Of a stretch of DNA of 32,000 bases, positions 9,605 through 24,919 are shown piece after piece. The translations under genes and the position numbers were made by a program. The stretch's first letter is position 1, and every line of letters begins with the position of its first letter. Under the pieces are notes generated by a model that was given only the letters and a program-made list of their open reading frames with translations, was not told the DNA's origin and did not search any database. Source of the DNA: Aquifex aeolicus VF5 (lineage in GTDB: Bacteria > Aquificota > Aquificia > Aquificales > Aquificaceae); contig NC_000918.1 of the NCBI RefSeq assembly GCF_000008625.1, positions 330,001 through 362,000 of the forward strand. The letters run 5' to 3'.

Positions 9605-10221
9605 AATGGAATATTGTATTATTCTTTTTCTGCTGCATTCTGCTTTACATAGAAAGGTAATTTTTCGTATATCTTTCTGTAAAGGTCGAAGGGTCTTCCT
9701 GCTAATTGTCCTATATCCCTGCTCCAAGGAGCTAAAGAAAAAGAAGCTATTTGTTTTACATCTCTTAGATTAAATATTCTAAGTGGTATACGTACAAAAA
9801 CCCCTTTGTCGTGGTAATTTTTATTAGGTCCCGTAAAGTCTGAAGTGTCTGAGTATGTATACCAGAACCCAACTTCAAAACCTTTGACTATTCTTGATAC
9901 TTCTATTCGTACACCTTTATCACCGGCTAGAAATCTACCCGCTTTCACACTAAATAACAGTTGAGGTTTTCTCGTCATATAGTAAGCCGATACGTAGAAA
10001 TCGTAAAAATCCCAATCTTTTCTAATCCCTAAAAACACGTCTGGCTTCCTTTTCCAGACGTAATCTCCCCCTATCCCCAAAGCAAACCTGCTGTCTCCGA
10101 AAAGGTGTAATACATCTCCCTACTTTAAATAATACACATGCATTAAAAATAGGAAAAAAGCAACTACAACTTTGTTATAGTGTAAACAGTTAGCGCTGAC
10201 TGGTATATTATCTGGATTACA
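9077..10221. repeat. Repeat A : resident pgm 5' part / YjbH-like ORF / Wza-like 3' end matched by 17716-18860
   Basis: See repeat A'. Confidence 0.9.
9619..10080 (-). CDS. YjbH/GfcD-like outer-membrane polysaccharide protein, C-terminal-domain-sized ORF (possible gene fragment)
   Basis: 153 aa. GFEVGFWYTYSD...YHDKGVFVRIPL...LAPWSRDIGQ resembles the C-terminal end of the YjbH family. There is no ATG and no signal peptide, and the frame is closed by a stop 14 codons upstream of the TTG. Confidence 0.5.
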   Translation of the reverse strand: MGIGGDYVWKRKPDVFLGIRKDWDFYDFYVSAYYMTRKPQLLFSVKAGRFLAGDKGVRIEVSRIVKGFEVGFWYTYSDTSDFTGPNKNYHDKGVFVRIPLRIFNLRDVKQIASFSLAPWSRDIGQLAGRPFDLYRKIYEKLPFYVKQNAAEKE

Positions 10222-10583
10222 TCACGTATAAGCGGTCTCCACATGGTTGGTATTTTTATCTTCGTGGGTACTATTATTGCATCACCAGGCTCGAGCTTGT
10301 AATTCAGAATATCGTTATAAGCCCATCCCCAAATGAACCTTTTGCGTTCAGAATCCCATTCTATAAGACTTTTTCCGCTTTCCTGAGATATTGCTATTCC
10401 ATTTGCCTTGATTATGAATACGTTGTCTACGTCGGCATCTCTTGTAAAACCTCCGCTTAAAGCTATGTAATCCTTTACCTTCAGACCGGGTTTGTAAAGA
10501 ATTGCTGACGGATTCTGTACCTCTCCAAATACAAGTACAGCGGAAGGTTTTCTCGGCACGTAAATCATATCTCCATCTTCCAA
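10164..10583 (-). CDS. C-terminal SLBB-domain segment of the Wza/KpsD-like exporter (same frame as the upstream ORF, separated by one TAG)
   Basis: DGDMIYVPRK...VFGEVQNPSAILYKPG is an SLBB-type repeat. 10584-10613 is open and in frame with the 10614-10616 TAG that ends the 725-aa ORF. Confidence 0.6.
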   Translation of the reverse strand: MEDGDMIYVPRKPSAVLVFGEVQNPSAILYKPGLKVKDYIALSGGFTRDADVDNVFIIKANGIAISQESGKSLIEWDSERKRFIWGWAYNDILNYKLEPGDAIIVPTKIKIPTMWRPLIRDVIQIIYQSALTVYTITKL

Positions 10584-10613
10584 GATTATGTTGTAGGGAG
10601 AATTCTTAAGAGC

Positions 10614-12749
10614 CTATATATCGGGGGGTATATTAAGACCTACGAGCCTTCCCGTTACCTGTACTTTTTCCATTTCCTGAAGCAATCTTCTTTTTGCCGC
10701 AAAAGCCTCTTTGTAAGCTTCCTTTTGCTCTTTTGGCAATTCAGCCTGCATGTATCCGGCAATTTCCTTTTCCAGTTGGGCTTTTAGGAAAACCATCGCC
10801 TTGTTTAGCCTTTCTCTTTGCATTTGAGCTATAGATTCTCTCAGTATTACTATTCCCTTAGGATATGCCATGGGTTTGAAGCCACCCGCTGCCTTCAATA
10901 CATCATAAAGGGTAGTCCTTTCACCTATCTTGTAAACACCCGGCTTCCATACTTGACCATAAACGTAAACCTTTGTAACCGTTTCATCCTCTTTGACTCT
11001 TTTTACTACAATTTCCGTTCCTGGTTTTAATTTCACAAAACTCAAAGGAGAAGGATGTTTCCTTAAATCGTTGAGGTAGAAAACTTCAACCTTTTTATCC
11101 TGTTTCACTATAACTTTCAACTCTCCCAACGGGTACTTAAACTTAACCTGTGATATTGCTTCCTCGAGAGTTAATCCCGGTTTATAAGTAACCCAAAGTG
11201 GTCTTTCCACTTCACCGCTTATTCTTACAGGTTCGTATACAAACTCCGGATAAAACACTATCCTGTCCCAGGATTGGAGTTTGATATCTTTGGAACCGTT
11301 CAATACTTCAATAGGTTTGAACTTTATTATTTCCTCCCTTTGAAGCGTTTTCGGATTAAAGCGTTCTATCTCCGCATAATTCAGGTTCGTATCTTTAAGA
11401 ATTAGGTCCTTCTGGAGGATTTCGGAAATGTAACAATCATCGGAACAAGCTACAGGACCTGTATACTTGTAGTATCCTGAAACTAAAACGTAGTTTTTTA
11501 CCAAATTCAGATTTATTTTCTTTCCTACGCTTTGTCCTAATTTAAAGAATATTAACCTATCGTAAGGCTTCAGCTCCATATCTTCCTTTCCTGTAAGAAC
11601 TTTTTCAGGTGAAAAGGCTATGTACTTCGGGATGGATCCTTTGGGATATTGCCTTACGAGAACGGCAAATTTAAGGTTTGTATCCTTAAAGAAAAGATCG
11701 GGGTTCAGGATATCAGATAACTTTAAACCCTCCTTATACTCGTACACTCCCGGGAGTGTTACATAACCTTCTATACTGTACGAGTTTTCAGGTATATCAG
11801 CCGACTTTTTGATCAATACTAAATCCCCGTCTCTTAAATTTTCGTTCATAAAGGCTTTATTGGTTAGGGAATCCTCTATTATCCTCAGTTTTCCATTTTC
11901 GTATCTCTGGAGTATAACCTTGTACTGGTACGAGGAAGGAAGAAGACCACCTGCAAGTTCTATAAGATCCTTGATTGTTTCACCACCTTTTATCTCATAG
12001 ATTGCAGGTCTTTTAACCTCACCAGCTATAGCAACCGTAGGGCCTATTGGTTTAACTAGAATAGTATCACCATCTCTCAACGTAAGATCTATAGGTTTCC
12101 CTTTTATGAATACATCGTACAGGTCTATGTTATAGGTTTTCAAACCAGAAGGTGTTTTCCTTGTAAGGATGATATTCCTCAAAGATCCTGTCTTTTTTAC
12201 ACCACCTGCAATAGAAAGAGCGTCTATTACTGTGTTTACAGCCGTTGCTACGTGAGTTCCCGGTCTGTTTACTTCTCCTGCAACGTAAATCACAAAAGTT
12301 CTGATTTCCCCGACCGTTACCTTTAGATCCAGACCAAGTTCCTGTCTAAGGAGTTCCTCAGTTTCTTTTAACGTAAGTCCCCATACGTTAAAAACACCTA
12401 GGTTAGGAATGGAAATATTTCCTTCTCTGTCAACAATTGTCTTTATTACCGGGGGGATTTCTTGATTAGATGGAAGACCTACTATGTATATGATTACTTC
12501 GTCTCCTGGGCCAAGCTTGTAATTTTCGCTGACGGGAAGGACTAACTTTGATACGTCTAAAGGAGTCATAAAAAACTCGTACCCAAATTGTCTGAGAGGC
12601 GTACTGTTTCTGGAAGAAAACTCCTTTTCTATTTTGGATATCAAATTTTTATACTTTGGAAGTTTCTTAGGTTGAGGTTTATCTTTTGCGTATACAAATA
12701 AAAAAGCCGCAACGAAAATAAGGATAAGTGATCTAAGAAACACTTTCAT
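10614..12749 (-). CDS. Polysaccharide export protein, Wza/KpsD family with multiple SLBB repeats
   Basis: Start at ATG 12749 (MKVFLRSLILIFVAAFLFVYA signal peptide). Poly_export motif YKLGPGDEVIIYIVG...DREGNISIPNLG. Repeated V..GEV.RPG.Y SLBB-like units. Confidence 0.8.
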   Translation of the reverse strand: MKVFLRSLILIFVAAFLFVYAKDKPQPKKLPKYKNLISKIEKEFSSRNSTPLRQFGYEFFMTPLDVSKLVLPVSENYKLGPGDEVIIYIVGLPSNQEIPPVIKTIVDREGNISIPNLGVFNVWGLTLKETEELLRQELGLDLKVTVGEIRTFVIYVAGEVNRPGTHVATAVNTVIDALSIAGGVKKTGSLRNIILTRKTPSGLKTYNIDLYDVFIKGKPIDLTLRDGDTILVKPIGPTVAIAGEVKRPAIYEIKGGETIKDLIELAGGLLPSSYQYKVILQRYENGKLRIIEDSLTNKAFMNENLRDGDLVLIKKSADIPENSYSIEGYVTLPGVYEYKEGLKLSDILNPDLFFKDTNLKFAVLVRQYPKGSIPKYIAFSPEKVLTGKEDMELKPYDRLIFFKLGQSVGKKINLNLVKNYVLVSGYYKYTGPVACSDDCYISEILQKDLILKDTNLNYAEIERFNPKTLQREEIIKFKPIEVLNGSKDIKLQSWDRIVFYPEFVYEPVRISGEVERPLWVTYKPGLTLEEAISQVKFKYPLGELKVIVKQDKKVEVFYLNDLRKHPSPLSFVKLKPGTEIVVKRVKEDETVTKVYVYGQVWKPGVYKIGERTTLYDVLKAAGGFKPMAYPKGIVILRESIAQMQRERLNKAMVFLKAQLEKEIAGYMQAELPKEQKEAYKEAFAAKRRLLQEMEKVQVTGRLVGLNIPPDI

Positions 12750-13920
12750 TTTCCTGTCCCTCCACATTCTCACTGTATCTCTTCCTTGCATTATTTAACC
12801 ACTCCTTAAAGAATGCTAAGAATATACCTGTAAAAAGACCGCTTACAAAGGAAACAGCTAAGATTAAAGCTTTTTTAGGCTTTGCCGGTTTTTGAGGAAT
12901 ATAAGGAGGATCTATGATCTGGAATGATACGGATTCCTTCACTTCGTTTGCCTTTGCGATCTGATACTGCTGGAATAATGTGGAAAGCAGGTTTTTGAGT
13001 ACCTCAAATTGCCACTGGAGTTTCTGGTAATTGAATTGGTACTCAGGTAAATTTCTATTCATTCCCTTAGCTATTGGTATATTCCTTTCTAAGTTTTGCT
13101 TTAAATTACCAGGAATATCAAATTTATCGTTGTTCTCGTAATTTAAACTTTCTTTGAAGATTTTACTTATAAACCTCTCATCAACAACTATCGGTACTTC
13201 TTTTATCTCACCCTTTATAAACTTGAGGTAAACCTCTTCCAGAACCTTTTGTTTATTGAGCACTTCCTTTATCTGGTTTTCAAGAAATATCCTGTGCTTC
13301 TTGGCTAAAGACCAGCTTTTTTCGTTCAGTATCTTATAAGCCTCTTCCAAGGAAACCTGTGCAATTTTATACGCCATATGCGGATCTTCTGGAAATTCTA
13401 CTGAAAAAGTTATAGTTCCTGTTTTTTTATTTGAGGAAACAGAAATTAAGTCTTCTAACAATTCGGCTCCATCTAGAATTGTGGGAATATCTTCTGGTTC
13501 AAGATCTTGTCTCCAAGTATTCCTACTTTCGTCCCATAAATCCTTGAACAAGACAGGCATAAGGTTTAATTTCTCAATCACTCTTTCCCTTAAAGTTCTG
13601 CTTTTTAAAACGGACTCAACGGTTACTTTATCTGCAACAGATGGTAGGGGTACTGGAAGACCTTCCAGTATTGAGGGTAAATTTGTTTTTTCTCCGCCTA
13701 TAGGAAATATCACAGCTTCGGTTTTGTAAACCGGAGGAGCTATGAATACATATGCAACCGCACCTGCAATAAAGATAACTAGAGTAAGCAGTATAACCCT
13801 GAACCTTTTTTTAAGTACAACCCAGAGCTCATATAGATCTATTTCATCTTCCTCGTACATCGGATATCCTAACTTCTCACTCTTCCGATCAATACTCTTT
13901 TCTTCCATACTGGATATCAT
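12733..13920 (-). CDS. Wzz-type polysaccharide co-polymerase / chain-length determinant (no kinase domain)
   Basis: N-terminal EIDLYELWVVLKKRFRVILLTLVIFIAGAVAYVF (Wzz motif plus TM1), a long coiled periplasmic region, and C-terminal TM ALILAVSFVSGLFTGIFLAFF. The start is uncertain (ATG at 13920, 13908 or 13860). The track start at 14034 would overlap the divergent MNT gene. Confidence 0.75.
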   Translation of the reverse strand: MISSMEEKSIDRKSEKLGYPMYEEDEIDLYELWVVLKKRFRVILLTLVIFIAGAVAYVFIAPPVYKTEAVIFPIGGEKTNLPSILEGLPVPLPSVADKVTVESVLKSRTLRERVIEKLNLMPVLFKDLWDESRNTWRQDLEPEDIPTILDGAELLEDLISVSSNKKTGTITFSVEFPEDPHMAYKIAQVSLEEAYKILNEKSWSLAKKHRIFLENQIKEVLNKQKVLEEVYLKFIKGEIKEVPIVVDERFISKIFKESLNYENNDKFDIPGNLKQNLERNIPIAKGMNRNLPEYQFNYQKLQWQFEVLKNLLSTLFQQYQIAKANEVKESVSFQIIDPPYIPQKPAKPKKALILAVSFVSGLFTGIFLAFFKEWLNNARKRYSENVEGQENESVS

Positions 13921-13966
13921 TTTATATGATGCTAAATTGAGTGTCCGTATAAATTTTAAACTTACA

Positions 13967-14278
13967 ATGGCAAAGATTGAAACGATAGAAGATCTCAGGA
14001 AATATATAGAAGATTTTTTCAAACGGAGAAACAAGAAGGTAAAGGTTATACTTTTTGGTTCCAGAGCACGGGGAACGCATACATCATATTCAGATGTGGA
14101 TATTGCTATTTTGTCGGATGAAAATATAGATAACGATCTGATACTACTTAGAGAAGAAATAGAAAACTCATTGTTGCCTCAGAAAGTTGATATAGTCGGC
14201 TTTTCAAAACTTGAGGAGAGTTTTAAAGAAGAAATCCTAAAAGAGGGAAAAGTGTGGATAGACTTAACAAAATCCTAA
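13967..14278 (+). CDS. Minimal nucleotidyltransferase (MNT/MntA-type antitoxin)
   Basis: Start at ATG 13967 (MAKIETIEDL). GSRARGTHTSYSDVDIAIL is the G-S-x9-D-x-D pol-beta-fold NTase motif. About 103 aa. Confidence 0.85.
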   Translation: MAKIETIEDLRKYIEDFFKRRNKKVKVILFGSRARGTHTSYSDVDIAILSDENIDNDLILLREEIENSLLPQKVDIVGFSKLEESFKEEILKEGKVWIDLTKS

Positions 14279-14664
14279 AAGACTTTTCTTCAGCGGTAAA
14301 TAGATTAGAAAAAGCGATAAATAAAGCAAAAGAATTTAAAGGATCAGAGGAGTACTCCTTTTACAGAGATTCTGCCATACAAAGATTCGAGTTCACGTTT
14401 GAATTAATGTGGAAAGTACTGAAAGTATTTCTCGAAAAAGAAGGAATACTCTGTAGATCGCCTAGAAGTTGTATAAGAGCTTTCTTTAACGCAGGCTATT
14501 CCACAGAAGAAGAAACAAGACTTATGCTAAAAATGGTAGAGGATAGAAACTTAACCGTACACACTTACAACGAAAAGCTTGCTGAGGAAATATTCAGCAG
14601 ACTTGAGAGCTACGTAAAGATCTTTCGAAGCATTTATGAAACAATTGAGGATGGATCACATTAG
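14254..14664 (+). CDS. HEPN-domain protein, HI0074-like NTase substrate-binding family (HepT-type toxin)
   Basis: 136 aa. R-x4-H motif in EDRNLTVHTY. Overlaps the MNT gene by 25 nt, the usual MNT-HEPN operon layout. Confidence 0.85.
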   Translation: MDRLNKILKDFSSAVNRLEKAINKAKEFKGSEEYSFYRDSAIQRFEFTFELMWKVLKVFLEKEGILCRSPRSCIRAFFNAGYSTEEETRLMLKMVEDRNLTVHTYNEKLAEEIFSRLESYVKIFRSIYETIEDGSH

Positions 14665-14672
14665 ATATGAGT

Positions 14673-14717
14673 CAAGTATTGTTAACCTCAATTTACGAAA
14701 TACTTGTTGCTTTTTTT
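14673..14717 (+). terminator. Weak candidate intrinsic terminator after the HEPN gene
   Basis: Inverted repeat caagtatt (14673-14680) / aatacttg (14699-14706), followed by a T-run at 14711-14717. The stem is AT-rich and the loop is long. Confidence 0.25.
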
Positions 14718-14765
14718 ATTTGCTTTAAAGTACAATATTTGAAAGCAAGGGATTAGTTTACCTGA

Positions 14766-14995
14766 ATGAATGATGAGCTTTTTAAAAGCTACACACTGCA
14801 GGATTATATAAGAATGGTTGGAGAAGCTGTAAGTAAAGCTCTTGAAAATAAAGACAGCTTTATCATATTCTTCGGTAAGGAAATCTGAGGAGGACTTCCG
14901 ACATAGATGTGGGAATTTACTGCGGAAAGAAACTTGACCTTTGACTTACGTGAAGATACTGGAAGAGATTGAAGCTCTGCTGATGCTGAGAAAAA
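14766..14995 (+). pseudogene. Decayed second minimal-nucleotidyltransferase gene (at least 2 frameshifts)
   Basis: Frame 1 reads MNDELFKSYTLQDYIRMVGEAVSKALENKDSFIIFFGKEI*. The next frame continues RRTSDIDVGIYCGKKLDL*. A third frame reads LTYVKILEEIEALLML. Spliced together these resemble an FG-x-SDIDVGI NTase core. Confidence 0.4.
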
Positions 14996-15063
14996 AAAAG
15001 AAAAGATTTATAAGGCAATAAAGAAAGTGCGGGTAGCTTTTAGAAAAGAGATAAAGGGAAAAA

Positions 15064-16395
15064 GTGATTATGGGAATTGAGGAAAAACTTACTACTGCTT
15101 CTAAGATTAAAAGCCTTCTTAACATTCGGGAACAGGAAAAGGTTTTAGATGCATTAATAAGATCCTCTTTTATTAATATATTAGCAAGAGGTTTTGGCTA
15201 TTTAAAACACGTAACAATTGCAGTTGTTCTAGGGTTTAACCTTCAAACTGATGCTTTTTTTATGGCATTATCACTTATAGGTATATTTCTTATTTTTGCG
15301 GATGTTTTTGATTCCATAGGTGTTCCAAATTTGGTTGACGCAAGATTAAAAAGTCAGGAGGAGTTTAAGAAATTATCTGGATTGCTTTTTACCTTTACAC
15401 TAATATTAACTTTTTTAACAGGATTCTTAGCAATAGGTTTCTATCCATTCGTTCTTAAAATTCCTGTAGGATTTAATATGGAAGCTTTATCATATACGCA
15501 AGTGGCATATTTTTTACTACTTCCATACTTGCTTTTTAATTTTCTATTTCACCACTTTGGTGCTGTTCTCAGAAGTGTAAGAAGATTTACAGTTTACTTT
15601 GTAGGGGAATTTTTATTTTCCTTTTTTAGTTTTTTATTTATTTTCTTAGGTTTGATTTTTTATAATAAATGGCTTGTTTTACCATTGTCAATTTCATTTG
15701 CACAAATAATTGCCACACTTTATATGTTTTATGTAGGAAGAGAATTTATTCATATAAATTTTTTTCTAAATCAGACTACGAAAAAAATTTTAAATCATTT
15801 TTTTTATCTTTCAGCGTTATATGGAGTGCTTCATTTGTTTATTGTTATTGATAGAGCATTTGGTTCATTGCTTGGAGAGAAATCAATTTCCGCTATTCAT
15901 TACGGTTTAATAGTTGCCAGTATTCCAAGAGGAATAATAAGGCTTGAAAATATCGCTATAACTTCACTTTCTGAATCAAAAGGAGACATAAAAAAGTTGA
16001 ATTTTTATATAAAAAGAATTTTAATTGTTTCAGGAATATCATTATTATTTTTCTTTGTTTTTGCTGAAATTATTGTTAAACTTCTTTTTGGATATGGTGC
16101 TTTCACTCAAATGGATTTAATTCTTACAGTAGAAGCAACCAGATTTTACTCTTTAAGCCTTCCTTTTATGTTTTTATGGCCAATTTTATACAGAGTTTTC
16201 CAGATAAAGGAAAATTTGAAACCAGTGTTTTTTATAGCCATATCAGGAATAACTGTAAACGGTATTTTAAATTATTTTTTTGTGCTAAAACTTAATTATG
16301 GTATAAAAGGTATAGCACTTGGAACTTTAGGAGCGTATATTGTAATATGTAGTTTAAGTTATATAATACTTTATTATAAATACAGGAGAAATTAA
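15064..16395 (+). CDS. MOP-superfamily polysaccharide/lipid-linked-oligosaccharide flippase (MurJ/MviN/Wzx-like)
   Basis: 443 aa and very hydrophobic (about 12 TM segments). The N-terminal ARGFGYLKHVTIAVVLGFNLQTDAFFMALS resembles the MurJ/MviN signature. AT-rich. GTG at 15064 or ATG at 15070. Confidence 0.75.
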   Translation: MIMGIEEKLTTASKIKSLLNIREQEKVLDALIRSSFINILARGFGYLKHVTIAVVLGFNLQTDAFFMALSLIGIFLIFADVFDSIGVPNLVDARLKSQEEFKKLSGLLFTFTLILTFLTGFLAIGFYPFVLKIPVGFNMEALSYTQVAYFLLLPYLLFNFLFHHFGAVLRSVRRFTVYFVGEFLFSFFSFLFIFLGLIFYNKWLVLPLSISFAQIIATLYMFYVGREFIHINFFLNQTTKKILNHFFYLSALYGVLHLFIVIDRAFGSLLGEKSISAIHYGLIVASIPRGIIRLENIAITSLSESKGDIKKLNFYIKRILIVSGISLLFFFVFAEIIVKLLFGYGAFTQMDLILTVEATRFYSLSLPFMFLWPILYRVFQIKENLKPVFFIAISGITVNGILNYFFVLKLNYGIKGIALGTLGAYIVICSLSYIILYYKYRRN

Positions 16396-16866
16396 ATGGT
16401 AAAAAGTGATTATACAAGATGCCCAATTTGTGAAACTCAGAAGAATGTGAACCAGTATATAGACACTTACATTTCTCCTTTTAATAATCAGGAATATAAA
16501 CTCTACGAATGCTCAAATTGTAAACTCCAGTGGTGGGAACCATTAAAAATTATTCCTGAATTTTATGAAAATGAAGTTTTTGACTCCTATATTTCCTTCC
16601 ATGAAGGTATTAGAAGTAGAATAGGCAAAAATCATGAAGCTTTTTTCAAGTATGTCCCTAAAAATGTAAAAGGGAAATTGTTAGATATAGGGTGTGGAGA
16701 TGGAGTTTTTCTTAGAGAAGCTCAAAAATATGGATTTGAAGTGTGGGGAATAGATTTTGATAAAAAAAGTGTTGAAACTGCTAAAAAAAACTTAGGGGTT
16801 AAAACTATTTATGCGATGAGTCTTGAAGAATTTCATAAATTTGCTAAAGATAATAATATAAGATAA
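16396..16866 (+). CDS. Class I SAM-dependent methyltransferase with N-terminal zinc ribbon, C-terminally truncated
   Basis: CPIC...CSNC zinc ribbon, motif I LLDIGCGDGVF, post-I GIDFD. The ORF stops about 45 residues after motif I with motifs II/III missing, exactly where the murB-like repeat begins. Confidence 0.7.
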   Translation: MVKSDYTRCPICETQKNVNQYIDTYISPFNNQEYKLYECSNCKLQWWEPLKIIPEFYENEVFDSYISFHEGIRSRIGKNHEAFFKYVPKNVKGKLLDIGCGDGVFLREAQKYGFEVWGIDFDKKSVETAKKNLGVKTIYAMSLEEFHKFAKDNNIR

Positions 16867-16904
16867 AGAGTATTAAAGTAAAAGAAATTAATGAAAAATT
16901 TTTA

Positions 16905-17546
16905 GTGGAGGCATTTGCTGGAACTCCTTTAAAGGATTTAATAAGGTTTAGTGTAAAGGAAAATATAAGGAATTTCTACAAACTTCTCGGTTTTCCGGCA
17001 AGTGTCGGGGGAGCGGTCAGTATGAACGCGGGAGCTTTCGGAGTTGAGATATCGGATTTTTTAAAAGAAGTTTACTTCGTGGATTGGGAGGGGAAACTCC
17101 AAAAAGCAAAAAGGGATGAACTGAGTTTCTCTTACAGAAAGTCACCTTTTCCGGAACTTGGAATAGTTTACAAAGTGGTTTTTGAGCTTGGAAAAAGTGA
17201 AGAAAATATACTTCCCAAGTACGAAAAAATAAGAAGAATAAGGAAAGAAAAACAGCCTATAAACTTTCCAACCAGCGGTTCTACCTTCAAAAATCCTAAA
17301 GGTAATTTTGCTGGAAAACTTCTGGAAGAAGTAAGTTTAAAAGGTTTTAGACTTAAAAACGTGGGATTTTCCGAAAAACACGCTAACTTCCTTGTGAATT
17401 ACGGAGGGGGAACATTTTCGGAAGTGGTGGATTTGATAAACATTGCAAAAGAAAGGGTTTACGAAAACTTCGGTATAGTATTGGAGGAGGAGGTAAAACT
17501 GATTGAGAGTAGTGGTTCTGATGGGTGGAAGGTCCTCGGAGCGTGA
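16905..17546 (+). pseudogene. murB: murB fragment (lacks about 74 N-terminal codons)
   Basis: The 213-aa ORF is about 93% identical to residues about 85-297 of the intact MurB at 23194-24087. The FAD-binding N-terminus is absent. Confidence 0.8.
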
Positions 17547-17718
17547 AATTTCCCTGAAAACGGGAAAGGCGGTTGCCAACGCATTGAAAGAACTGGGGCA
17601 CGAAGTTTACGAGCTTGACCTTGACAAGGAACTTCCCTGTAAACTCCTCGAGATAAAGCCCGATAAAGTATTTATAGCCCTTCACGGAAGGTACGGGGAA
17701 GACGGAACCGTGCAGGGA
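17503..17718 (+). pseudogene. ddl: ddl fragment (first 72 codons), fused to antisense pgm sequence
   Basis: MRVVVLMGGRSSEREISLKTGKAVANALKELGH...HGRYGEDGTVQG matches Ddl at 24044 with 2 aa changes, then diverges abruptly at 17719. Confidence 0.85.
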
Positions 17719-18243
17719 ATCGTGAACTATAAGCGCCTCCCTTTCTTTGAATAAATCCATATCGAAGAATTCCCTTATTTTTTCTACGTACTTTTTTCTG
17801 ACCTCCTGGTATTCGGGTTCGAATTCTCTTACTTCTACGCTTTCTAAATCCTTAACCTTTTCTTCAACGCTCTTTACAAATTCCGGAGTTGCAGAACCCC
17901 CGAAGCTTTCTTTGATCTTGTACCCGTTGTAAGCCGGTGGATTGTGAGAAGCCGTAATCATAACCCCGTTTTCATATCCGAGATACTTTACAGCGAAAGA
18001 AACCATAGGCGTAGTACAGGCACTTCCAACTAGTTTCGCCTCAAGTCCCTCACTTCTAAATACGTCGTAAACAGCTTTAGCAAAATCTTCAGAACGAAAA
18101 CGCCAGTCGTACCCGACTATTACACGTTTTACCCCTTTTTCCTTTAAAACTTCCGCGTGCGCCTTTGCAACTCTCCTTACATTATCAAAGTTAAACTCTT
18201 CCGCTATCCTTGCCCTCCACCCATCCGTCCCGAACTTAATCAT
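17719..18243 (-). pseudogene. Phosphohexomutase fragment (first 175 codons only)
   Basis: MIKFGTDGWR...TASHNPPAYNGYK... is identical or near-identical to the 5' part of the gene at 8228-9604. The Mg and sugar loops are missing. The track ORF 17383-18366 is a read-through chimera. Confidence 0.85.
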
Positions 18244-18257
18244 AATGGAATATTGTA

Positions 18258-18719
18258 TTATTCTTTTTCTGCTGCATTCTGCTTTACATAGAAAGGTAAT
18301 TTTTCGTATATCTTTCTGTAAAGGTCGAAGGGTCTTCCTGCTAATTGTCCTATATCCCTGCTCCAAGGAGCTAAAGAAAAAGAAGCTATTTGTTTTACAT
18401 CTCTTAGATTAAATATTCTAAGTGGTATACGTACAAAAACCCCTTTGTCGTGGTAATTTTTATTAGGTCCCGTAAAGTCTGAAGTGTCTGAGTATGTATA
18501 CCAGAACCCAACTTCAAAACCTTTGACTATTCTTGATACTTCTATTCGTACACCTTTATCACCGACCAGAAATCTACCTGCTTTCACACTAAACAACAGT
18601 TGTGGTTTTTGAGTCATGTAATAAGCCGATACGTAAAAATCGTAAAAATCCCAGTCTTTTCTAACACCTAAAAACACGTCTGGCTTCCTTTTCCAGACGT
18701 AATCTCCCCCTATCCCCAA
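18258..18719 (-). CDS. Second copy of the YjbH/GfcD-like ORF
   Basis: 153 aa, with 3 conservative differences (I/V, R/Q, A/V) from the copy at 9619-10080. The frame is intact. Confidence 0.4.
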   Translation of the reverse strand: MGIGGDYVWKRKPDVFLGVRKDWDFYDFYVSAYYMTQKPQLLFSVKAGRFLVGDKGVRIEVSRIVKGFEVGFWYTYSDTSDFTGPNKNYHDKGVFVRIPLRIFNLRDVKQIASFSLAPWSRDIGQLAGRPFDLYRKIYEKLPFYVKQNAAEKE

Positions 18720-18802
18720 AGCAAACCTGCTGTCTCCGAAAAGGTGTAATACATCTCCCTACTTTAAATAATACACATGCATTAAAAATAGGAAAAAAGC
18801 AA

Positions 18803-18860
18803 CTACAACTTTGTTATAGTGTAAACAGTAAGTGCTGACTGGTATATTATCTGTATTACA
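18803..18860 (-). pseudogene. Tail (last 19 codons) of a second Wza-like gene copy
   Basis: rc translation VIQIIYQSALTVYTITKL* equals the end of the ORF at 10164-10583. Homology stops at 18860. Confidence 0.6.
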
Positions 18861-19375
18861 AACCAAAAACATATCAAAAACTTGCAAATACGCTCGGAAT
18901 ATCAAGAAACACATTCTATAAATGGCTAAAAAGATATGAAAAAGATGGACTTGCAGGTCTTTACGATAAACCTAAAGCTCCAGTAAACACAAGAAAACCA
19001 ACCATAAGAAACAAATGCAAAGAAAGGGTGGATAAAGCTTTATATAACCTTAGACCTTAAGAGGAGAAAGTAGTGGGGCTTGAGGTAACGGATGATAGAG
19101 TACATGAGGGACAGGTTGATAAGGCAGATAAGGAGGGGAAGAGGAAGTGGAAGGAGAAAGTGGTGTATGGCAACAGATGGCTTATTGAGAGCTTCTTTTC
19201 AACCTTCGAGCGATGGTTTGGAGAGTATGTAGTGAGCAAAAGGCTTGGTAACATAAGGAATGAGCATGTGTTTAAAGTTGGGATAATGATCATGATGATG
19301 AGGTCAGGTGGTATGAGAGATGGCTGTGGTGGAGTTGATGTGGACGAGAAAATAATCAGGTCAGGGAGATCATAA
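18860..19375 (+). mobile_element. Degraded IS transposase: HTH N-terminal fragment plus DDE C-terminal fragment (IS4/IS5-like Y-R-E-K region)
   Basis: 18860-19060 reads KPKTYQKLANTLGISRNTFYKWLKRYEKDGLAGLYDKPKAP...* with no start codon. 19073-19375 contains YGNRWLIESFFSTFERWFG (Y-x2-R-x3-E-x6-(K/R) block). Both pieces are in the same frame, and the total is far shorter than a full transposase. Confidence 0.6.
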
Positions 19376-19476
19376 CAGATTTATTGGACAGAGCATGGAA
19401 TTTATAACCCTCTGGGTGATTTTTAACTGAATACCTATAAATTCAAATGATTATAAATATTATGGAGCGATTGATT

Positions 19477-20571
19477 ATGAACAGTATCTACATTGACGGA
19501 CTATTTTATAAAGGCTCCGGGATAGGAAGATATTATGAGTTTTCGATTCAAGAATTAAGCCAATATGCAATCATTTATATATATGTTCCAATGAAATTTA
19601 AAAACGAATTTTATCAACAATTCGGCAATAATGATAAAATTGTTCCAATATCCACCAAATATGAAAAATTTTCCTTAAAGGGACTCCTTATCCAATCTAA
19701 AATTTTGAAAAGTCTTGAAAATAAAGTTTATTTGTTTTTCTTTCCTCACATAAATCTACCTCTTTATATATCACAAAATACTGTTGTAACCGTTCATGAT
19801 CTAAGACCTTTCACAGAGTATTGGGATAGAGGAGAATTCAAAAAACTTATTATTAAAAAGCTTTTTTTTGATAGAGCAATTAAGTATTCAAAGGCTATAA
19901 TATCTATATCAAAAACAACTAAAAACGACTTACTAAAATTTTATTCCGAAGTTCAAAATAAGATTGTGGTTATTTATGAAACATTTAGTATTAATAAAAA
20001 ATCAACAGAGACAAAACAAAATATTGTTGGGGATTATCTGCTCTATGTAGGGCAGTTTAAAAAACATAAAAATTTAGATAGATTGCTTAAAGCTTTTTCT
20101 ATGATCAAAAATAAAATTAAATGCAAGCTTGTAATAGCAGGAAAAAAAGATAATATAGATATCTATAATTCTATCAAAAGCCTCAATCTTGGTGATCGTG
20201 TTGTGGTTATAAAAAATCCTTCCGATGGCGAGTTGATAAATTTATATAAAAATGCTAAATTTTTCATTTCTCCTTCTTTATATGAAGGTTTTGGTTTACC
20301 ACCCCTTGAAAGTTTAAATTATGATGTCCCTGTAATATTGTCTGATATACCAGTATTTAGGGAAATATACGAAGATATAGCAATTTATTTTAATCCTTTT
20401 TCAGAAGAAAATATTGCTGAAAAGATAATTTTTGCACTTTCCAATTATAATAGCATAAAACAAAAAACTGTATCTGAAAAAGATAAAATTTTCAATAAAT
20501 TTGAAAAAAGAAAAATAGTAAAGCAGTATCTGGAGCTTTTTAACAAAATTATAAAAGGTGAATTAGCGTGA
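19477..20571 (+). CDS. GT4-family (group 1) glycosyltransferase
   Basis: MNSIYIDG...GIGRY start, then SPSLYEGFGLPPLESL (E-x7-E region). GGAG lies 9 nt upstream of the ATG at 19477; the track ORF starts at 19447. AT-rich. Confidence 0.8.
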   Translation: MNSIYIDGLFYKGSGIGRYYEFSIQELSQYAIIYIYVPMKFKNEFYQQFGNNDKIVPISTKYEKFSLKGLLIQSKILKSLENKVYLFFFPHINLPLYISQNTVVTVHDLRPFTEYWDRGEFKKLIIKKLFFDRAIKYSKAIISISKTTKNDLLKFYSEVQNKIVVIYETFSINKKSTETKQNIVGDYLLYVGQFKKHKNLDRLLKAFSMIKNKIKCKLVIAGKKDNIDIYNSIKSLNLGDRVVVIKNPSDGELINLYKNAKFFISPSLYEGFGLPPLESLNYDVPVILSDIPVFREIYEDIAIYFNPFSEENIAEKIIFALSNYNSIKQKTVSEKDKIFNKFEKRKIVKQYLELFNKIIKGELA

Positions 20572-21674
20572 AAGTCTTACATCTTGGGAAGCTATGTCCT
20601 CCGAATGAAGGAGGAATAGAAGTTTTTTCATACGACTTACTTGAATACTTAAACTCAAAAGGTATAAAAGCAGATTTACTATGTTTTGGAAATAGAACAT
20701 TTAATGACGCTTATAGAGGTTTTAACTTTTTTTCCTGCAAAATGAATGTCAAACTAAATTCGGCTCCACTTTCCTATGACTTTGTAAAAACTTTTAAGAA
20801 AATAGAAAAAAACTATGACATAATACACGTTCATTCTCCTAATCCATTGGCAGAAATTTTGTCTCTTTTTTCTCATAAAAAAGTGGTGGCTCACTGGCAC
20901 TCAGATATTGTCAGGCAAAAATTTACATACTTTTTTTATAAACCATTTCAACATATGTATTTGAAAAAAGCAATTAGAATAATCTGTACATCTCCACAAT
21001 ATTTACAAACTTCAAAGCAATTAGAAGGTTTTAGGAATAAAGCAGTAGTAATTCCCTTAGGCTTAAATCCCAAAAGATTGATGAGCGACTACGTAGATGA
21101 AAAATTTAAAGATTTTATTGAGTTGAAAAATAAAGGAAGAAAAATAGTTCTCTCAATAGGAAGACTGGTAGAGTATAAAGGGTATAAATACTTAATAGAA
21201 GCTGCAAAATATATAAATAACAACATCTCAATAGTTATCGCGGGTTCGGGACCTTTATTTCAATCATTAGAAGAAAAAATCGAAACATTGAATTTAAAGG
21301 AAAAGGTTTTTCTATTCGGAAGAATTAATAATGTGAGCCTTTACATGAAAAATTGTGATGTATTTTGTCTACCTTCTATCACCAGAAACGAAGCTTTTGG
21401 TCTGGTATTAGTAGAAGCATTATACTTTGGTAAACCTCTTATAACTACAGACGTTGAAGGCTCCGGTATAAGCTATGTTAATCAAAACGGTATAACAGGT
21501 TTAGTAGTAAAACCAAAAGACCCAAAAGCACTGGCAGAAGCCATTAATAAAATTTTAAAAAATGAAAATTTATATAAACAATTTAGTGAAAATGCTAAAA
21601 AACGTTTCAAAGAATTTGAGATATCAAATATAGGAGATAAAATATTAAATTTGTACGAGGAGGTTTTAAAATGA
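20568..21674 (+). CDS. GT4-family (group 1) glycosyltransferase
   Basis: MKVLHLGK...GGIE start, then PSITRNEAFGLVLVEALYFGKPLITTDV. GTGA overlap with the preceding GT gene. Confidence 0.8.
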   Translation: MKVLHLGKLCPPNEGGIEVFSYDLLEYLNSKGIKADLLCFGNRTFNDAYRGFNFFSCKMNVKLNSAPLSYDFVKTFKKIEKNYDIIHVHSPNPLAEILSLFSHKKVVAHWHSDIVRQKFTYFFYKPFQHMYLKKAIRIICTSPQYLQTSKQLEGFRNKAVVIPLGLNPKRLMSDYVDEKFKDFIELKNKGRKIVLSIGRLVEYKGYKYLIEAAKYINNNISIVIAGSGPLFQSLEEKIETLNLKEKVFLFGRINNVSLYMKNCDVFCLPSITRNEAFGLVLVEALYFGKPLITTDVEGSGISYVNQNGITGLVVKPKDPKALAEAINKILKNENLYKQFSENAKKRFKEFEISNIGDKILNLYEEVLK

Positions 21675-21737
21675 TTATCCGATATCATGCTCCTTTGGGA
21701 CTTGGACTTGCAGTGGTGTAACTGATCTAAGTCCATT

Positions 21738-22151
21738 ATGAATGGGAAGGCCGGTGCAAGCAGTAAAGGTGGAAATTTTGTGTATACAATAATTCGCAAA
21801 GCTAAGGCAGGAGAACCGCTAAGGGTGGTTGATGATATATACATGTCTCCTACCTATACCTTAGATGCTGCAAAAGAGATATGGAAAATTTTACTTGAAA
21901 ATAAACCTTACGGTATATACCACGTTACAAACTCAGGATACTGCTCATGGTATGAGTTTGCTGTCAAGATACTCGAATACTCTGGATTGAAAACGGATAT
22001 AAAACCTGTAAGACATACAGAATTTAAGACTAAAGCAAATAGACCACTGTGGAGCCCTTTAGCAAGTAAAAGGGGAATAAAACTGAGAAACTGGGAAGAA
22101 GCTTTAAAGGATTTTATAAATGCTATTTCCATTAATAACCTTTCTTATTAG
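21738..22151 (+). pseudogene. rmlD: dTDP-4-dehydrorhamnose reductase (RmlD) C-terminal remnant
   Basis: GGNFVYTIIRKAKAGEPLRVVDDIYMSPTYTLDAA, YHVTNSGYCSWYEFA and ANRPLWSPL match the distal half of RmlD. The Rossmann N-terminal half (about 150 aa) is absent and a stop lies 5 codons upstream of the ATG. Confidence 0.65.
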
Positions 22152-23193
22152 CTTCTTTCTCTGTTTTCTATTCATAAAGTACATTAACCTAAATCTCTTC
22201 CACGATACTCAAAAAGGTGTTCAGAAATTTCACCACAGGCCTACACCCAGAATAGGCGGCCTTGCTATTTATTTATCCGTTCTTTTAGTATCAGTAATCT
22301 TCATTCTTTTAAATAAGCCTTTTTCAAAAGAGTTTTTTCTTTTTATAATGTCTGCCTTCCCCGTTTTTTTCAGCGGACTTCTTGAGGATATAACAAAAAA
22401 AGTTTCCCCGAAATGGAGATTACTTATAGGATTTATTTCGGGAATACTTGCGTTTTATTTGATTTCCGCAAAAGTAACAAGAGTAGATATTCCTTTTGTA
22501 GATAGCCTCCTTTCCATACCTCTTATTTCTCTTTTATTTACTGCTTTTGCTCTGGCAGGTGTTTCCCATGCTTTTAACATAATTGACGGTTTTAACGGTC
22601 TTGCCTCGGGTGTTGCAATGCTCGTTTTTGGAGCTTACGCTTACGTGTCTTTTTTACATAATGATCTTTTCCTCGTTTACTTAAATCTTCTTCTTATCGC
22701 TGCTACCTTAGGATTCTTTCTGTGGAATTATCCCTTCGGGCTTATATTCCTCGGGGACGGAGGAGCTTACTTTTTAGGTTTCTGTGCGGGAGCCATAGGA
22801 GCTATTCTAGTAAATAAATATCCTGACATTTCTCCCTGGTTTCCCATGTTGCTTGTTATTTATCCTGTATGGGAGACTTTATTTTCCATATACAGAAGAA
22901 AATTTCTTAAAGATTATCCACCACATATGCCCGATGCACTTCATTTCCATCAATTGCTTTACAGGAGACTCCTTAAATTTACTCTAGGTTCAAACATAGA
23001 ACCTTTTAAAAGGAATTCATACACTTCACCCTTCCTGTGGGTTATGGAACTTATATGTTTAGTTCCAGCGGTTCTATTTTGGGATAATACTCCTATCTTG
23101 ATGCTTTTCACATTTGCTTTCATAGTTTTTTATACATGGCTTTACTTCAGAATAGTCAAGTTTAAAACTCCGAAAATCTTTAGAATTAAATAA
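22120..23193 (+). CDS. Polyprenyl-phosphate N-acetylhexosamine-1-phosphate transferase (WecA/MraY family, initiating transferase)
   Basis: 357 aa with about 10-11 TM segments, HRPTPRIGGLAIY and NIIDGFNGLASG motifs. The stop is immediately followed by the murB ATG. Confidence 0.8.
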   Translation: MLFPLITFLISFFLCFLFIKYINLNLFHDTQKGVQKFHHRPTPRIGGLAIYLSVLLVSVIFILLNKPFSKEFFLFIMSAFPVFFSGLLEDITKKVSPKWRLLIGFISGILAFYLISAKVTRVDIPFVDSLLSIPLISLLFTAFALAGVSHAFNIIDGFNGLASGVAMLVFGAYAYVSFLHNDLFLVYLNLLLIAATLGFFLWNYPFGLIFLGDGGAYFLGFCAGAIGAILVNKYPDISPWFPMLLVIYPVWETLFSIYRRKFLKDYPPHMPDALHFHQLLYRRLLKFTLGSNIEPFKRNSYTSPFLWVMELICLVPAVLFWDNTPILMLFTFAFIVFYTWLYFRIVKFKTPKIFRIK

Positions 23194-24087
23194 ATGCTCT
23201 TCCTAAAGAACGTTCCCCTTCAGAACCTTACGACTATAAAAATAGGGGGAAGGGTATCCTTTTACGCAGAGCCTTCCGATCTAAAGGAAATTTCCCTATG
23301 TATTGATTTTTCAAAATCCCGAGACATTCCTCTTTTTGTTTTGGGTAACGGTTCTAATACTATTTTCGGTGACGTAAGAGGGCTCGTTGTAAATTTAAAA
23401 AACTTAAAAGGTTTTAAAGTAAAAGAAATTAAAGGGAAATTTTTTGTAGAAGCTTTTTCCGGAACGCCTTTAAAGGATTTAATAAGGTTTAGTGTAAAGG
23501 AAAATGTAAAGAGTTTTTACAAACTTCTCGGTTTTCCGGCAAGTGTCGGGGGAGCGGTTAGTATGAACGCCGGGGCTTTTGGGGTTGAGATATCGGATTT
23601 TTTAAAGGAAGTTTACTTCGTAGATTGGGAGGGGAAACTCCAAAAAGCAAAAAGGGATGAACTGAATTTTTCTTACAGAAAATCGCCTTTTCCAAAACTT
23701 GGAATAGTTTTCAAAGTAGTTTTTGAGTTTGAAAGAAGTAAAGAAAATATACTTCCCAAGTACGAAAAAATAAGAAGAATAAGGAAAGAAAAGCAACCTA
23801 TAAACCTTCCAACCAGCGGTTCTACCTTCAAAAATCCGGAGGGTAATTTCGCGGGAAAGCTTCTGGAAAAAGCAGGTTTAAAAGGTTTTAGACTTAAAAA
23901 CGTAGGATTTTCCGAAAAACACGCTAACTTCCTTGTAAACTACGGAGGTGGAACTTTTTCGGAAGTGGTAGATTTAATAAATATTGCAAAGGAAAGGGTT
24001 TACGAAAACTTCGGTATAGTATTGGAGGAGGAGGTAAAGCTGATTGAGAGTAGTGGTTCTGATGGGTGGAAGGTCCTCGGAGCGTGA
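23194..24087 (+). CDS. murB: UDP-N-acetylenolpyruvoylglucosamine reductase
   Basis: LTTIKIGG, VLGNGSN, SGSTFKNP, HANFLVN motifs. 297 aa. Confidence 0.9.
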   Translation: MLFLKNVPLQNLTTIKIGGRVSFYAEPSDLKEISLCIDFSKSRDIPLFVLGNGSNTIFGDVRGLVVNLKNLKGFKVKEIKGKFFVEAFSGTPLKDLIRFSVKENVKSFYKLLGFPASVGGAVSMNAGAFGVEISDFLKEVYFVDWEGKLQKAKRDELNFSYRKSPFPKLGIVFKVVFEFERSKENILPKYEKIRRIRKEKQPINLPTSGSTFKNPEGNFAGKLLEKAGLKGFRLKNVGFSEKHANFLVNYGGGTFSEVVDLINIAKERVYENFGIVLEEEVKLIESSGSDGWKVLGA

Positions 24088-24259
24088 AATATCCTTGAAA
24101 ACGGGAAAGGCCGTTGCAAAGGCATTAAGAGAACTGGGGCACGAAGTTTACGAGCTTGACCTTGATAAGGAACTTCCCTGTAAACTCCTCGAAATAAAGC
24201 CCGATAAAGTATTTATAGCCCTTCACGGAAGGTACGGAGAGGACGGAACCGTGCAGGGA
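23414..24259. repeat. Repeat B : resident murB/ddl sequence matched by 16873-17718
   Basis: See repeat B'. Confidence 0.9.
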
Positions 24260-24919
24260 TTGCTGGAGATTTTAGACATACCTTACACGGGTTCGGATAC
24301 GATAGCTTCCGCTGTATCTATAGACAAGGACTTTACAAAGAGAATAGTAAAAAGCCTTGGTATAAACACACCTGACTGGGAAACGTTCATTTCGGAGGGA
24401 GATGTTCTAAATACAGAATGGAATAAATTTCCCGCGGTGGTAAAGCCGGTAAGAGAAGGATCAAGCGTTGGGCTGAAAATAGTGGAAAGTCTTGAAGAAT
24501 TAAAAGAGTACGCCTTAGACCTCCTTAAAAAAACCGAAAGGGTTATGGTTGAGGAATTCGTGGAAGGGAGGGACATGACTGTAGGGATACTGAAAGGGGA
24601 AGCCCTTCCCGTTGTGGAAATAATACCTAAAAAAGGAGTTTACGACTACGAGTGTAAGTACACAAAAGGTATGAGCGAGTACAGAATTTTAAAAGATGAA
24701 AAATTATCTAAAAAACTCCAGGAAATCTCCCTCAAAATTTCTAAATTTCTCTCTTTAAAGGACTTTGCAAGAATTGACTTCAGAGTGACAAAAGAAGGTA
24801 AAATATTTTTCTTAGAGGTAAATACCATACCAGGGATGACTGAACTCAGTCTCCTTCCTATGGCAGCGAAAGAAAAAGGTATGGACTTTAAAAAATTAAT
24901 ATCTATAATTATCACTTAA
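24044..24919 (+). CDS. ddl: D-alanine--D-alanine ligase
   Basis: TTG start 8 nt after GGAGGAGGAGG. Motifs GGRSSEREISL, HGRYGEDGTVQGLLE, ATP-grasp region, LEVNTIPGMT. Confidence 0.9.
   Translation: MRVVVLMGGRSSEREISLKTGKAVAKALRELGHEVYELDLDKELPCKLLEIKPDKVFIALHGRYGEDGTVQGLLEILDIPYTGSDTIASAVSIDKDFTKRIVKSLGINTPDWETFISEGDVLNTEWNKFPAVVKPVREGSSVGLKIVESLEELKEYALDLLKKTERVMVEEFVEGRDMTVGILKGEALPVVEIIPKKGVYDYECKYTKGMSEYRILKDEKLSKKLQEISLKISKFLSLKDFARIDFRVTKEGKIFFLEVNTIPGMTELSLLPMAAKEKGMDFKKLISIIIT

Follow-up and report, generated by a model that had tools for sequence, protein, structure and literature searches.

O-antigen and capsule loci undergo serotype switching and acquire gene remnants through recombination in their flanks, as between galF and gnd in enterobacteria and between dexB and aliA in the pneumococcus. 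Pseudogene fragments are likewise able to convert expressed genes, as seen in the concerted evolution of dispersed repeats and in the silent cassettes of the pilS/pilE system. In natural transformation, foreign DNA can be added to a chromosome through homology-facilitated illegitimate recombination (HFIR), which has been described for Acinetobacter baylyi, Streptococcus pneumoniae and Pseudomonas stutzeri (work by de Vries and Wackernagel in 2002, by Prudhomme et al. in 2002 and by Meier and Wackernagel in 2003, all as summarised in a passage of PMC6382021). Here we analyse a 32,000-nt stretch of the Aquifex aeolicus VF5 genome (NC_000918.1, 330001-362000; hereafter the window, to which all coordinates below are relative), in which a 2-kb segment joins a partial, diverged copy of murB and ddl to a partial, diverged copy of pgm and its neighbours, the live counterparts of both being located elsewhere in the same window. 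We propose, with a probability of roughly 0.7, that this segment is a recombination scar left by additive integration of DNA from a related lineage, followed by two deletions.

The proposed event would resemble HFIR in that an illegitimate join, made at a short GC-rich microhomology, accompanies a homologous anchor, the incoming foreign DNA would need no integrase, and a duplicated, diverged flank remains. It would differ in that the microhomology comprises 11 nt in a similar patch of ~21 nt, at or above the 3-10 bp given in that same passage (PMC6382021), in that the added segment is large (a whole gene island with both of its flanks), and in that two later deletions are needed; moreover, unlike the HFIR cases, the event in Aquifex is read from sequence, and this organism is not known to undergo transformation. 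The permuted order of the copies, with the right flank followed by the left, is exactly that expected of Campbell-type integration or of the novel joint of a tandem duplication, although in contrast to a fresh tandem duplication the copies would be xenologous alleles rather than identical, and most of the duplicated interior would have been deleted. As in O-antigen and capsule loci, a low-GC patchwork sugar block with truncated genes and an insertion-sequence remnant lies between housekeeping anchors, but here the integration would have been additive, the anchors murB, ddl and pgm are left as remnants in mid-operon, and the host is a hyperthermophile, a setting where population processes of this sort have seldom been documented. 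Finally, sequence patches move both ways between the remnants and the live genes, with different strains carrying different patches, as in conversion between pseudogenes and expressed genes; unlike pilS/pilE, the locus exhibits no sign of a programmed or selected system, and its live genes encode essential cell-wall enzymes rather than surface antigens. The mechanism itself is already known, and the scar is a large and unusually well-documented example of it. Our search of the literature returned no description of this scar, with PMC3879981 including MurB only in phylogenies.

Two partial gene copies joined in permuted order

Self-BLAST of the window revealed two repeat pairs. The first consists of 16864-17718 (B′, plus strand), an ungapped 855-nt copy of 23405-24259 (B, plus strand) with 69 differences (91.9% identity). 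The second consists of 17698-18860 (A′, minus strand), a copy of 9060-10221 (A, minus strand) that is 1163 nt in length and carries 45 mismatches (96.0% identity) and a single 1-nt gap, which falls at the joint between the ddl and pgm fragments. No further copies of either repeat occur in the whole genome (1,590,791 bp, two contigs). A preliminary description of this DNA, made from the sequence alone, had placed the duplicated stretch at 16873-18860; the end point agrees with ours, whereas the murB copy begins at 16864.

Domain searches and codon-aware comparison were used to assign the parts of each copy. B′ comprises murB codons 71-297 (murB′, in frame 16866-17546) and ddl codons 1-72 (ddl′, 17503-17718), and it lacks the first ~70 codons of murB, which specify part of the FAD-binding domain, as well as ddl past codon 72. 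Its resident counterpart B sits within full-length murB (23194-24087) and ddl (24044-24919). A′ follows head-to-tail and contains, in antisense, pgm codons 1-178 (pgm′, from 18243 down to 17710), a yjbH-like piece (yjbH′, open reading frame (ORF) 18258-18719, with homology extending to ~18758), and the last 58 nt of a wza-like gene (wza′, 18803-18860). The resident A holds the 5′ part of a full-length pgm (8228-9604), whose product is identified by domain search as a phosphogluco/phosphomannomutase, together with a yjbH remnant (9619-10080, 153 aa) and the 3′ end of the wza-like gene. No murB, ddl or pgm piece of the scar spans a complete domain set, so none is predicted to work as an enzyme, and the scar as a whole probably contains no working genes. 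A 327-aa minus-strand open frame (17383-18366) extends from the N-terminal domain of pgm′ past the joint into antisense ddl′ and murB′; contigs from an RNA library of the same organism cover this chimeric frame in full, and it is a predicted ORF only.

The sequence between A and B′ is designated module X (10222-16395), and that between the scar and B includes module Y (19447-23193, plus strand). Contigs from RNA sequencing (RNA-seq) of the same organism, all with 0 differences from the window, bridge the ddl′-pgm′ joint (17667-18829) as well as the A′-Y (18800-20033), Y-B (20598-23558) and A-X (10161-10861) junctions, where a contig represents presence in the RNA library and is not proof of transcription. 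In the vent metagenome X3, in which the strain is present at a depth of ~22, one contig corresponds to 10161-16955 with 2 differences and another to 18800-23496 with 1 difference and a 1-nt deletion, and together the X3 contigs bridge A-X, X-B′, A′-Y and Y-B. All five junctions (A-X, X-B′, B′-A′, A′-Y and Y-B) are bridged by RNA-seq contigs, vent-metagenome contigs or both, with 0-2 differences. The scar structure is real and is not confined to the culture that was sequenced.

The copies differ as alleles under purifying selection

Codon-aware comparison revealed 58 differences between murB and murB′, distributed 11/8/39 over the three codon positions and causing 21 replacements. There are 11 differences between ddl and ddl′ over 72 codons (1/1/9; 9 synonymous and 2 replacements, K/N and R/K), 26 between pgm and pgm′ over 178 codons (6/3/17; 9 replacements), and 14 between the two yjbH-like ORFs, all in 9926-10027 (2/2/10; 10 synonymous codons and 3 replacements, I/V, R/Q and A/V). 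When the four frames are pooled, replacements make up 35 of the 109 differences. The preliminary description had likewise characterised the divergence as mostly synonymous, and its counts for ddl and for the yjbH-like ORF (14 differences, 10 of them in third positions, and 3 replacements) are identical to ours; for murB, the bias that it noted is present, but its approximate counts of 50 differences and 14 amino acid changes were too low.

Estimates of dN/dS by four methods (NG86, LWL85, YN00 and maximum likelihood (ML)) range from 0.12 to 0.17 for murB, 0.06 to 0.10 for ddl, 0.12 to 0.22 for pgm and 0.08 to 0.11 for the yjbH remnant. These values, spanning 0.06-0.22 over all four frames, are far below 0.5 throughout, and in no repeat pair did we observe a ratio near 1 or a lack of codon-position bias, the pattern that the preliminary description had named as contradicting its proposal. 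The synonymous divergence is alike in both flanks (dS ~0.2-0.35), and none of the fragment frames contains a stop, frameshift or indel. In neutral simulations (3000 per segment) that placed the same number of mutations at random with the observed 80% transitions, none gave a replacement count as low as that observed. Combined binomial tests reject both neutrality (P=4e-16) and a pairwise omega of 0.5 (P=1.2e-6), the latter being the minimum expected had the truncated copy drifted since an in-place duplication. The copies thus differ as alleles under purifying selection, not as a gene and its decaying duplicate.

A similar picture is obtained when the replacements are assigned to branches. The closest relative of MurB′ in a protein search is the resident MurB (91%), followed by two metagenomic MurB sequences at 85% and 84%, which are equidistant from both copies (85.0 versus 84.1%). 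ML phylogeny groups MurB′ with MurB as its sister (support 89/91), and the terminal branch of the fragment is no longer than that of the resident (0.040 versus 0.054). Polarisation of the 21 MurB replacements with the closest outgroups places 8 on the fragment branch and 10 on the resident branch, with 3 ambiguous, and the use of six congeners yields fragment:live ratios of 3:5 for pgm and 1:1 for ddl. The totals are 12:16 with the closest outgroups and 15:12 with farther ones, the outgroups being 15-35% diverged. In-place decay is expected to place ~87% of the replacements on the fragment, which is rejected by both ratios (P=4e-8 for 12:16; P=6e-5 for 15:12), and at most ~11-31% of the fragment branch can represent constraint-free time. 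Equal distance of both copies to their relatives fits sister lineages and is by itself no sign of in-place decay; the equidistance that the preliminary description had linked to in-situ decay is indeed present, but the decay is not. The murB-fragment ORF is represented in the protein collection by 213- and 219-aa versions (NCBI, UniRef and nr records of this genome), and its protein cluster contains only this genome's own fragment, with two annotated starts.

Remnants and live genes exchange sequence

A 650-nt tract of the scar (17915-18564) is identical to 9276-9925, while the blocks on either side diverge by 12-14%; at a divergence of 4-8%, the probability of encountering 650 identical nucleotides is 3e-12 to 3e-24. 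A second identical tract, 163 nt in length, is shared between 10028-10190 and 18667-18829. Both tracts are gene-conversion patches. The 650-nt tract is also collapsed at two-copy depth in X3, and the patch is therefore older than the split between X3 and the sequenced strain.

The X3 contigs reveal exchange since that split. Over 13.5 kb of unique DNA, X3 is separated from the window by only 3 substitutions (2.2e-4; ~0.02%), and it lacks 42 of the 69 differences between B and B′, which have been erased in both directions. The regions corresponding to 16926-17124 and 17200-17696 are each represented by a single contig at about two-copy depth (43 and 35, respectively), and X3 has no separate resident-type contig over 23768-24207. 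The contig at 17200-17696 carries the scar allele at 22 of 22 sites in its murB part (17200-17549) and the resident allele at 9 ddl sites; at sites of the B/B′-differing type, 25 of 25 variant letters in X3 equal the paralogous copy. Because this contig is the only one covering the 3′ part of murB in X3, the scar-type allele, including its changes at the otherwise invariant positions 205 and 228, is compatible with a working essential gene. The presence of the scar allele in X3 murB is more likely to result from conversion than to mark X3 as the donor lineage.

Conversion removes differences ~400 times faster than they build up in place. Since co-resident copies are homogenised far faster than they diverge, the divergence of 8-12% cannot have arisen in place, within one genome. 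The remnants and the live genes still swap sequence in wild strains.

Conversion may also bear on the yjbH segment. The homologous 153 residues correspond to the C-terminus of an open frame of ~650 aa in a genome from another family of the same order, in which the gene order wzz-wza-yjbH is as found here. By this comparison, both yjbH copies are the same 3′ remnant of a gene of ~650 codons, so the silent bias in this segment needs a cause other than the contrast between a working and a dead copy, and the premise of the preliminary description that a functional gene is being compared with a dead fragment fails here. The truncation point (10081-10163) lies inside the 163-nt identical tract. Two causes are conceivable, namely a spread of the truncation by conversion once the alleles had diverged, or constraint that still acts on the small ORF.

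Several further contigs touch these regions. In X3, three clustered substitutions (9335, 9350 and 9359, within 25 nt) fall inside the window's identical tract on a contig of two-copy depth, which suggests a further imported or converted patch in both copies. An X4 contig (8899-9253, depth 4.6) that passes from unique pgm sequence to 13 scar-type alleles was given no weight, as at so low a depth a shared stretch of 41 nt could yield a chimera; if genuine, it could represent a strain whose pgm has been converted or one in which the repeats have mediated deletion of the export half. Joints with 21-28 nt on one side and the low-depth holes of X4 over 9168-13255 were also kept out of the interpretation. 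Some contigs of X3 and X5 match the window up to 9898 or from 23416 onward and then enter unrelated sequence, and the summed X3 depth at 9886 is ~200 as against ~22 for the strain, short stretches near these positions being shared by another, more abundant organism or arrangement.

Joints, borders and the ancestral arrangement

At the joint between the two copies, ddl codon 72 is fused to antisense pgm codon ~180 at the 11-nt microhomology CCGTGCAGGGA (17708-17718). This sequence matches ddl (24249-24259) at 11 of 11 positions and antisense pgm (9069-9079) at 10 of 11, and it lies inside a patch of ~21 nt (17698-17718) that is imperfectly similar between the two genes.

The outer borders of the scar are of a different kind. 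On the left, a plus-strand methyltransferase gene (16396-16866) stops after codon ~155, exactly where B′ starts, whereas its full-length relatives are 312-338 aa. On the right, a plus-strand transposase remnant (18860-19375) starts in mid-domain exactly at the end of A′; it matches HTH_29 (E=1.5e-10) and, weakly, DDE_Tnp_1 (E=0.003), contains an internal stop, and has no second copy in the genome. Because on one side the 3′ half of the methyltransferase gene and the first 70 codons of murB′ are missing, and on the other 58 nt of wza′ abut a mid-domain transposase, both borders are deletion joints. Among the ORFs scanned between 8228 and 24919 we detected no integrase domain, and the truncated transposase remnant, which adjoins one border, accounts for one deletion joint but not for the duplication of the flanks.

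All six of the same-genus genomes examined place pgm and murB side by side in divergent orientation, with ~17-30 bp between their start codons and with ddl and the same further genes downstream, and none of the six contains an island at this site or a second copy of these genes. In A. aeolicus VF5, 13.6 kb separates pgm from murB. The adjacency of the two genes in the congeners indicates that the 13.6-kb island, and with it the scar inside, is lineage-specific. Matches to Pfam and NCBIfam identify export, flippase, glycosyltransferase and initiating-transferase genes in this low-GC region, which is a surface-polysaccharide (O-antigen/capsule-like) gene cluster placed between conserved flanks. 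By domain search, module X encodes a Wza-like exporter, Wzz, an MNT/HEPN pair and a MurJ/Wzx-like flippase, and module Y encodes two glycosyltransferases (26-30% GC), an RmlD fragment and a WecA-like initiating transferase. The yjbH remnant, the wza-like gene and wzz are on the minus strand, and the MNT/HEPN pair is on the plus strand, as are the genes from the flippase through the WecA-like transferase. The flippase and glycosyltransferase blocks have a GC content of 26-31%, and the scar, at 34-44%, is like its originals. Two other Aquificota genomes carry a single uninterrupted same-strand series made up of the flippase, a methyltransferase of full length (312-338 aa), glycosyltransferases and the WecA-like transferase, and because of this contiguity we conclude that the scar splits a former single operon. 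An alternative in which modules X and Y would be rival cassettes contributed by two strains was rejected, and the modules are read as the two parts of that operon, given the contiguous series in these relatives and the retention of the wza 3′ end in A′.

The Wza-like exporter gene (10164-12791, minus strand) consists of two ORFs of 725 and 139 aa that align to one continuous gene in the other-family genome of the same order (42-73% identity), and it looks to have been split by an in-frame stop. The nucleotidyltransferase and HEPN-type pair, which is toxin-antitoxin-like, occupies 13742-14664 between the export genes and the flippase. The RmlD fragment (21738-22151), between the second glycosyltransferase and the WecA-like transferase, retains only the C-terminal half of the protein (profile positions 154-285 of 287) and is another island remnant. 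Elsewhere on contig 1, two additional repeat pairs, 933401-935192 with 979573-981361 (1.8 kb) and 509197-510124 with 1288392-1289324 (0.9 kb), are 94-95% identical and could be paralogs or more scars of the same kind.

Origin of the scar

In the history that we favour, pgm and murB-ddl would have lain back-to-back in the ancestral state until, in this lineage, the 13.6-kb surface-polysaccharide island came between them. A related lineage, ~8-12% diverged at the nucleotide level (dS ~0.3), would then have supplied a segment carrying the same pgm-island-murB-ddl region, and this segment would have been added to the chromosome rather than swapped in. It could have entered by a homologous crossover at one end and an illegitimate join at the other, as in HFIR, or by circularisation of the fragment and subsequent Campbell-type insertion through a single crossover. 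The illegitimate join at CCGTGCAGGGA would have produced a tandem, heterozygous two-copy state, from which one deletion, from mid-methyltransferase to murB′ codon 70, and another, from the wza′ 3′ end into an insertion sequence, would have left one exporter/flippase half and one glycosyltransferase half with the head-to-tail flank remnants between them. Patches would afterwards have been exchanged between the remnants and the live genes by gene conversion. The scar's order, in which the right-flank copy precedes the left-flank copy, matches the novel joint formed when the pgm...ddl segment becomes a circle or a tandem array. Furthermore, the flank remnants are of similar dS and are physically joined, which argues for one donor molecule and agrees with the earlier proposal that the donated DNA carried both flanks. 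The data demonstrate the anatomy, the ancestral adjacency of pgm and murB, the joint at the microhomology, the signature of selection, the symmetry of the branches, the existence of every junction in independent data and the conversion patches that differ between strains, whereas the supply by a second lineage, the order of events and the route of uptake are inferred.

Certain observations weigh against this history. The closer donor allele that the preliminary description had hoped to find among relatives was not detected in 30 related genomes, in JGI contigs or among 5.8 billion collected proteins. Outside this genome, the nearest MurB is only 85% identical and is equidistant from both copies, and the closest related genomes match the scar at just 71-78% nucleotide identity. 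A scan of JGI metagenome contigs with MurB′ returned nothing above 57% protein identity, in a set from which records very near this genome may be left out. The yjbH remnant is as silent-biased as the other segments even though both copies are truncated alike, and the argument from selection fails for that segment. In addition, three separate joints are required, one fusion and two deletions, and the two deletions are almost exactly complementary, reflecting either chance or selection for one copy per gene. The metagenome evidence consists of contigs, not reads, from a single study. Lastly, the immigrant copy could be either the scar or the live genes.

A history running in the opposite direction would make the scar alleles native and the live genes the immigrants. 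An in-genome rearrangement, via a tandem-duplication novel joint or a microhomology-mediated templated insertion, would have placed within the operon duplicates of the murB-ddl and pgm-yjbH segments native to the strain, and a diverged lineage would later have replaced the resident 5′ part of pgm together with murB-ddl, leaving the scar as a fossil of older alleles. The same low dN/dS, symmetric branches and outgroup equidistance are predicted by such a history, nothing in the data marks which copy is foreign, and transformation often leaves several discontinuous donor segments near each other, according to a passage of PMC13344027, which we count in its favour. We nevertheless regard it as unlikely and rank it below additive integration, since it calls for two separate imports of like divergence, 14 kb apart, that spared the island and the scar, one long import being expected to have overwritten the scar, and since a rare in-place rearrangement is needed as well. 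Moreover, the scar ddl′ of X3 is resident-type and its resident murB is scar-type, a combination that fits conversion of co-resident copies better than repeated imports. This reversal would keep the conclusion that two lineages contributed and would change only its direction. A single-step templated insertion from the strain's own genes fails to explain how the copies have diverged, unless replacement of the resident alleles followed.

Low dN/dS and symmetric branches would also be produced by an old, large duplication within the genome, in which complete pgm-island-murB-ddl copies were long maintained under selection (dS ~0.3) and were recently trimmed, with the ddl′-pgm′ fusion among the changes. 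We consider this very improbable: tandem duplications are generally unstable, conversion erases most differences within 2e-4 substitutions per site, such that co-resident copies could not reach 8-12%, two copies are found in none of the six congeners (0/6), and long selection on redundant copies of essential single-copy genes would be unusual. The least credible explanations, to which we assign a negligible chance, are an in-place duplication whose fragments then decayed neutrally, and an artefact of assembly or of a mixed culture. They could draw on the equal distance of both copies from all relatives and on the age of the assembly, which is an old one. Decay in place is rejected by the dN/dS values (P=1.2e-6), by the symmetry of the branches (P=4e-8 to 6e-5) and by fragments that carry neither stops nor indels, and an artefact is rejected by the independent RNA-seq and vent-metagenome contigs that bridge all five junctions. 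Additive integration shares with the preliminary description the view that the divergence arose while both versions worked, in two lineages, a view borne out by the low dN/dS, the 12:16 distribution over branches, the intact fragment frames and the rate of conversion.

Biological implications

The murB-like, pgm-like and yjbH-like ORFs in 16864-18860 should be annotated as remnants and not as paralogous enzymes. With regard to a possible role, the direct-repeat pairs are 8.6 kb and 6.5 kb apart, and we have considered whether the scar is kept in vent populations as a reservoir of alleles for murB, ddl and pgm, or as a repeat-based route for dropping halves of the operon. Although we judge such maintenance quite doubtful, the repeats would, if it were true, provide a way, reversible by uptake, of shedding either the export half of the surface-sugar operon or its glycosyltransferase half, and gene conversion would feed alternative alleles into the essential murB, ddl and pgm genes.

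The locus would represent a well-resolved trace left when diverged lineages recombined in a hyperthermophile that branches deeply and lacks a genetic system, with essential cell-wall genes serving as the anchors. As conversion is much faster than point mutation, the acquisition is likely to be recent, and the conversion patches show ongoing homologous recombination in the organism's natural populations.

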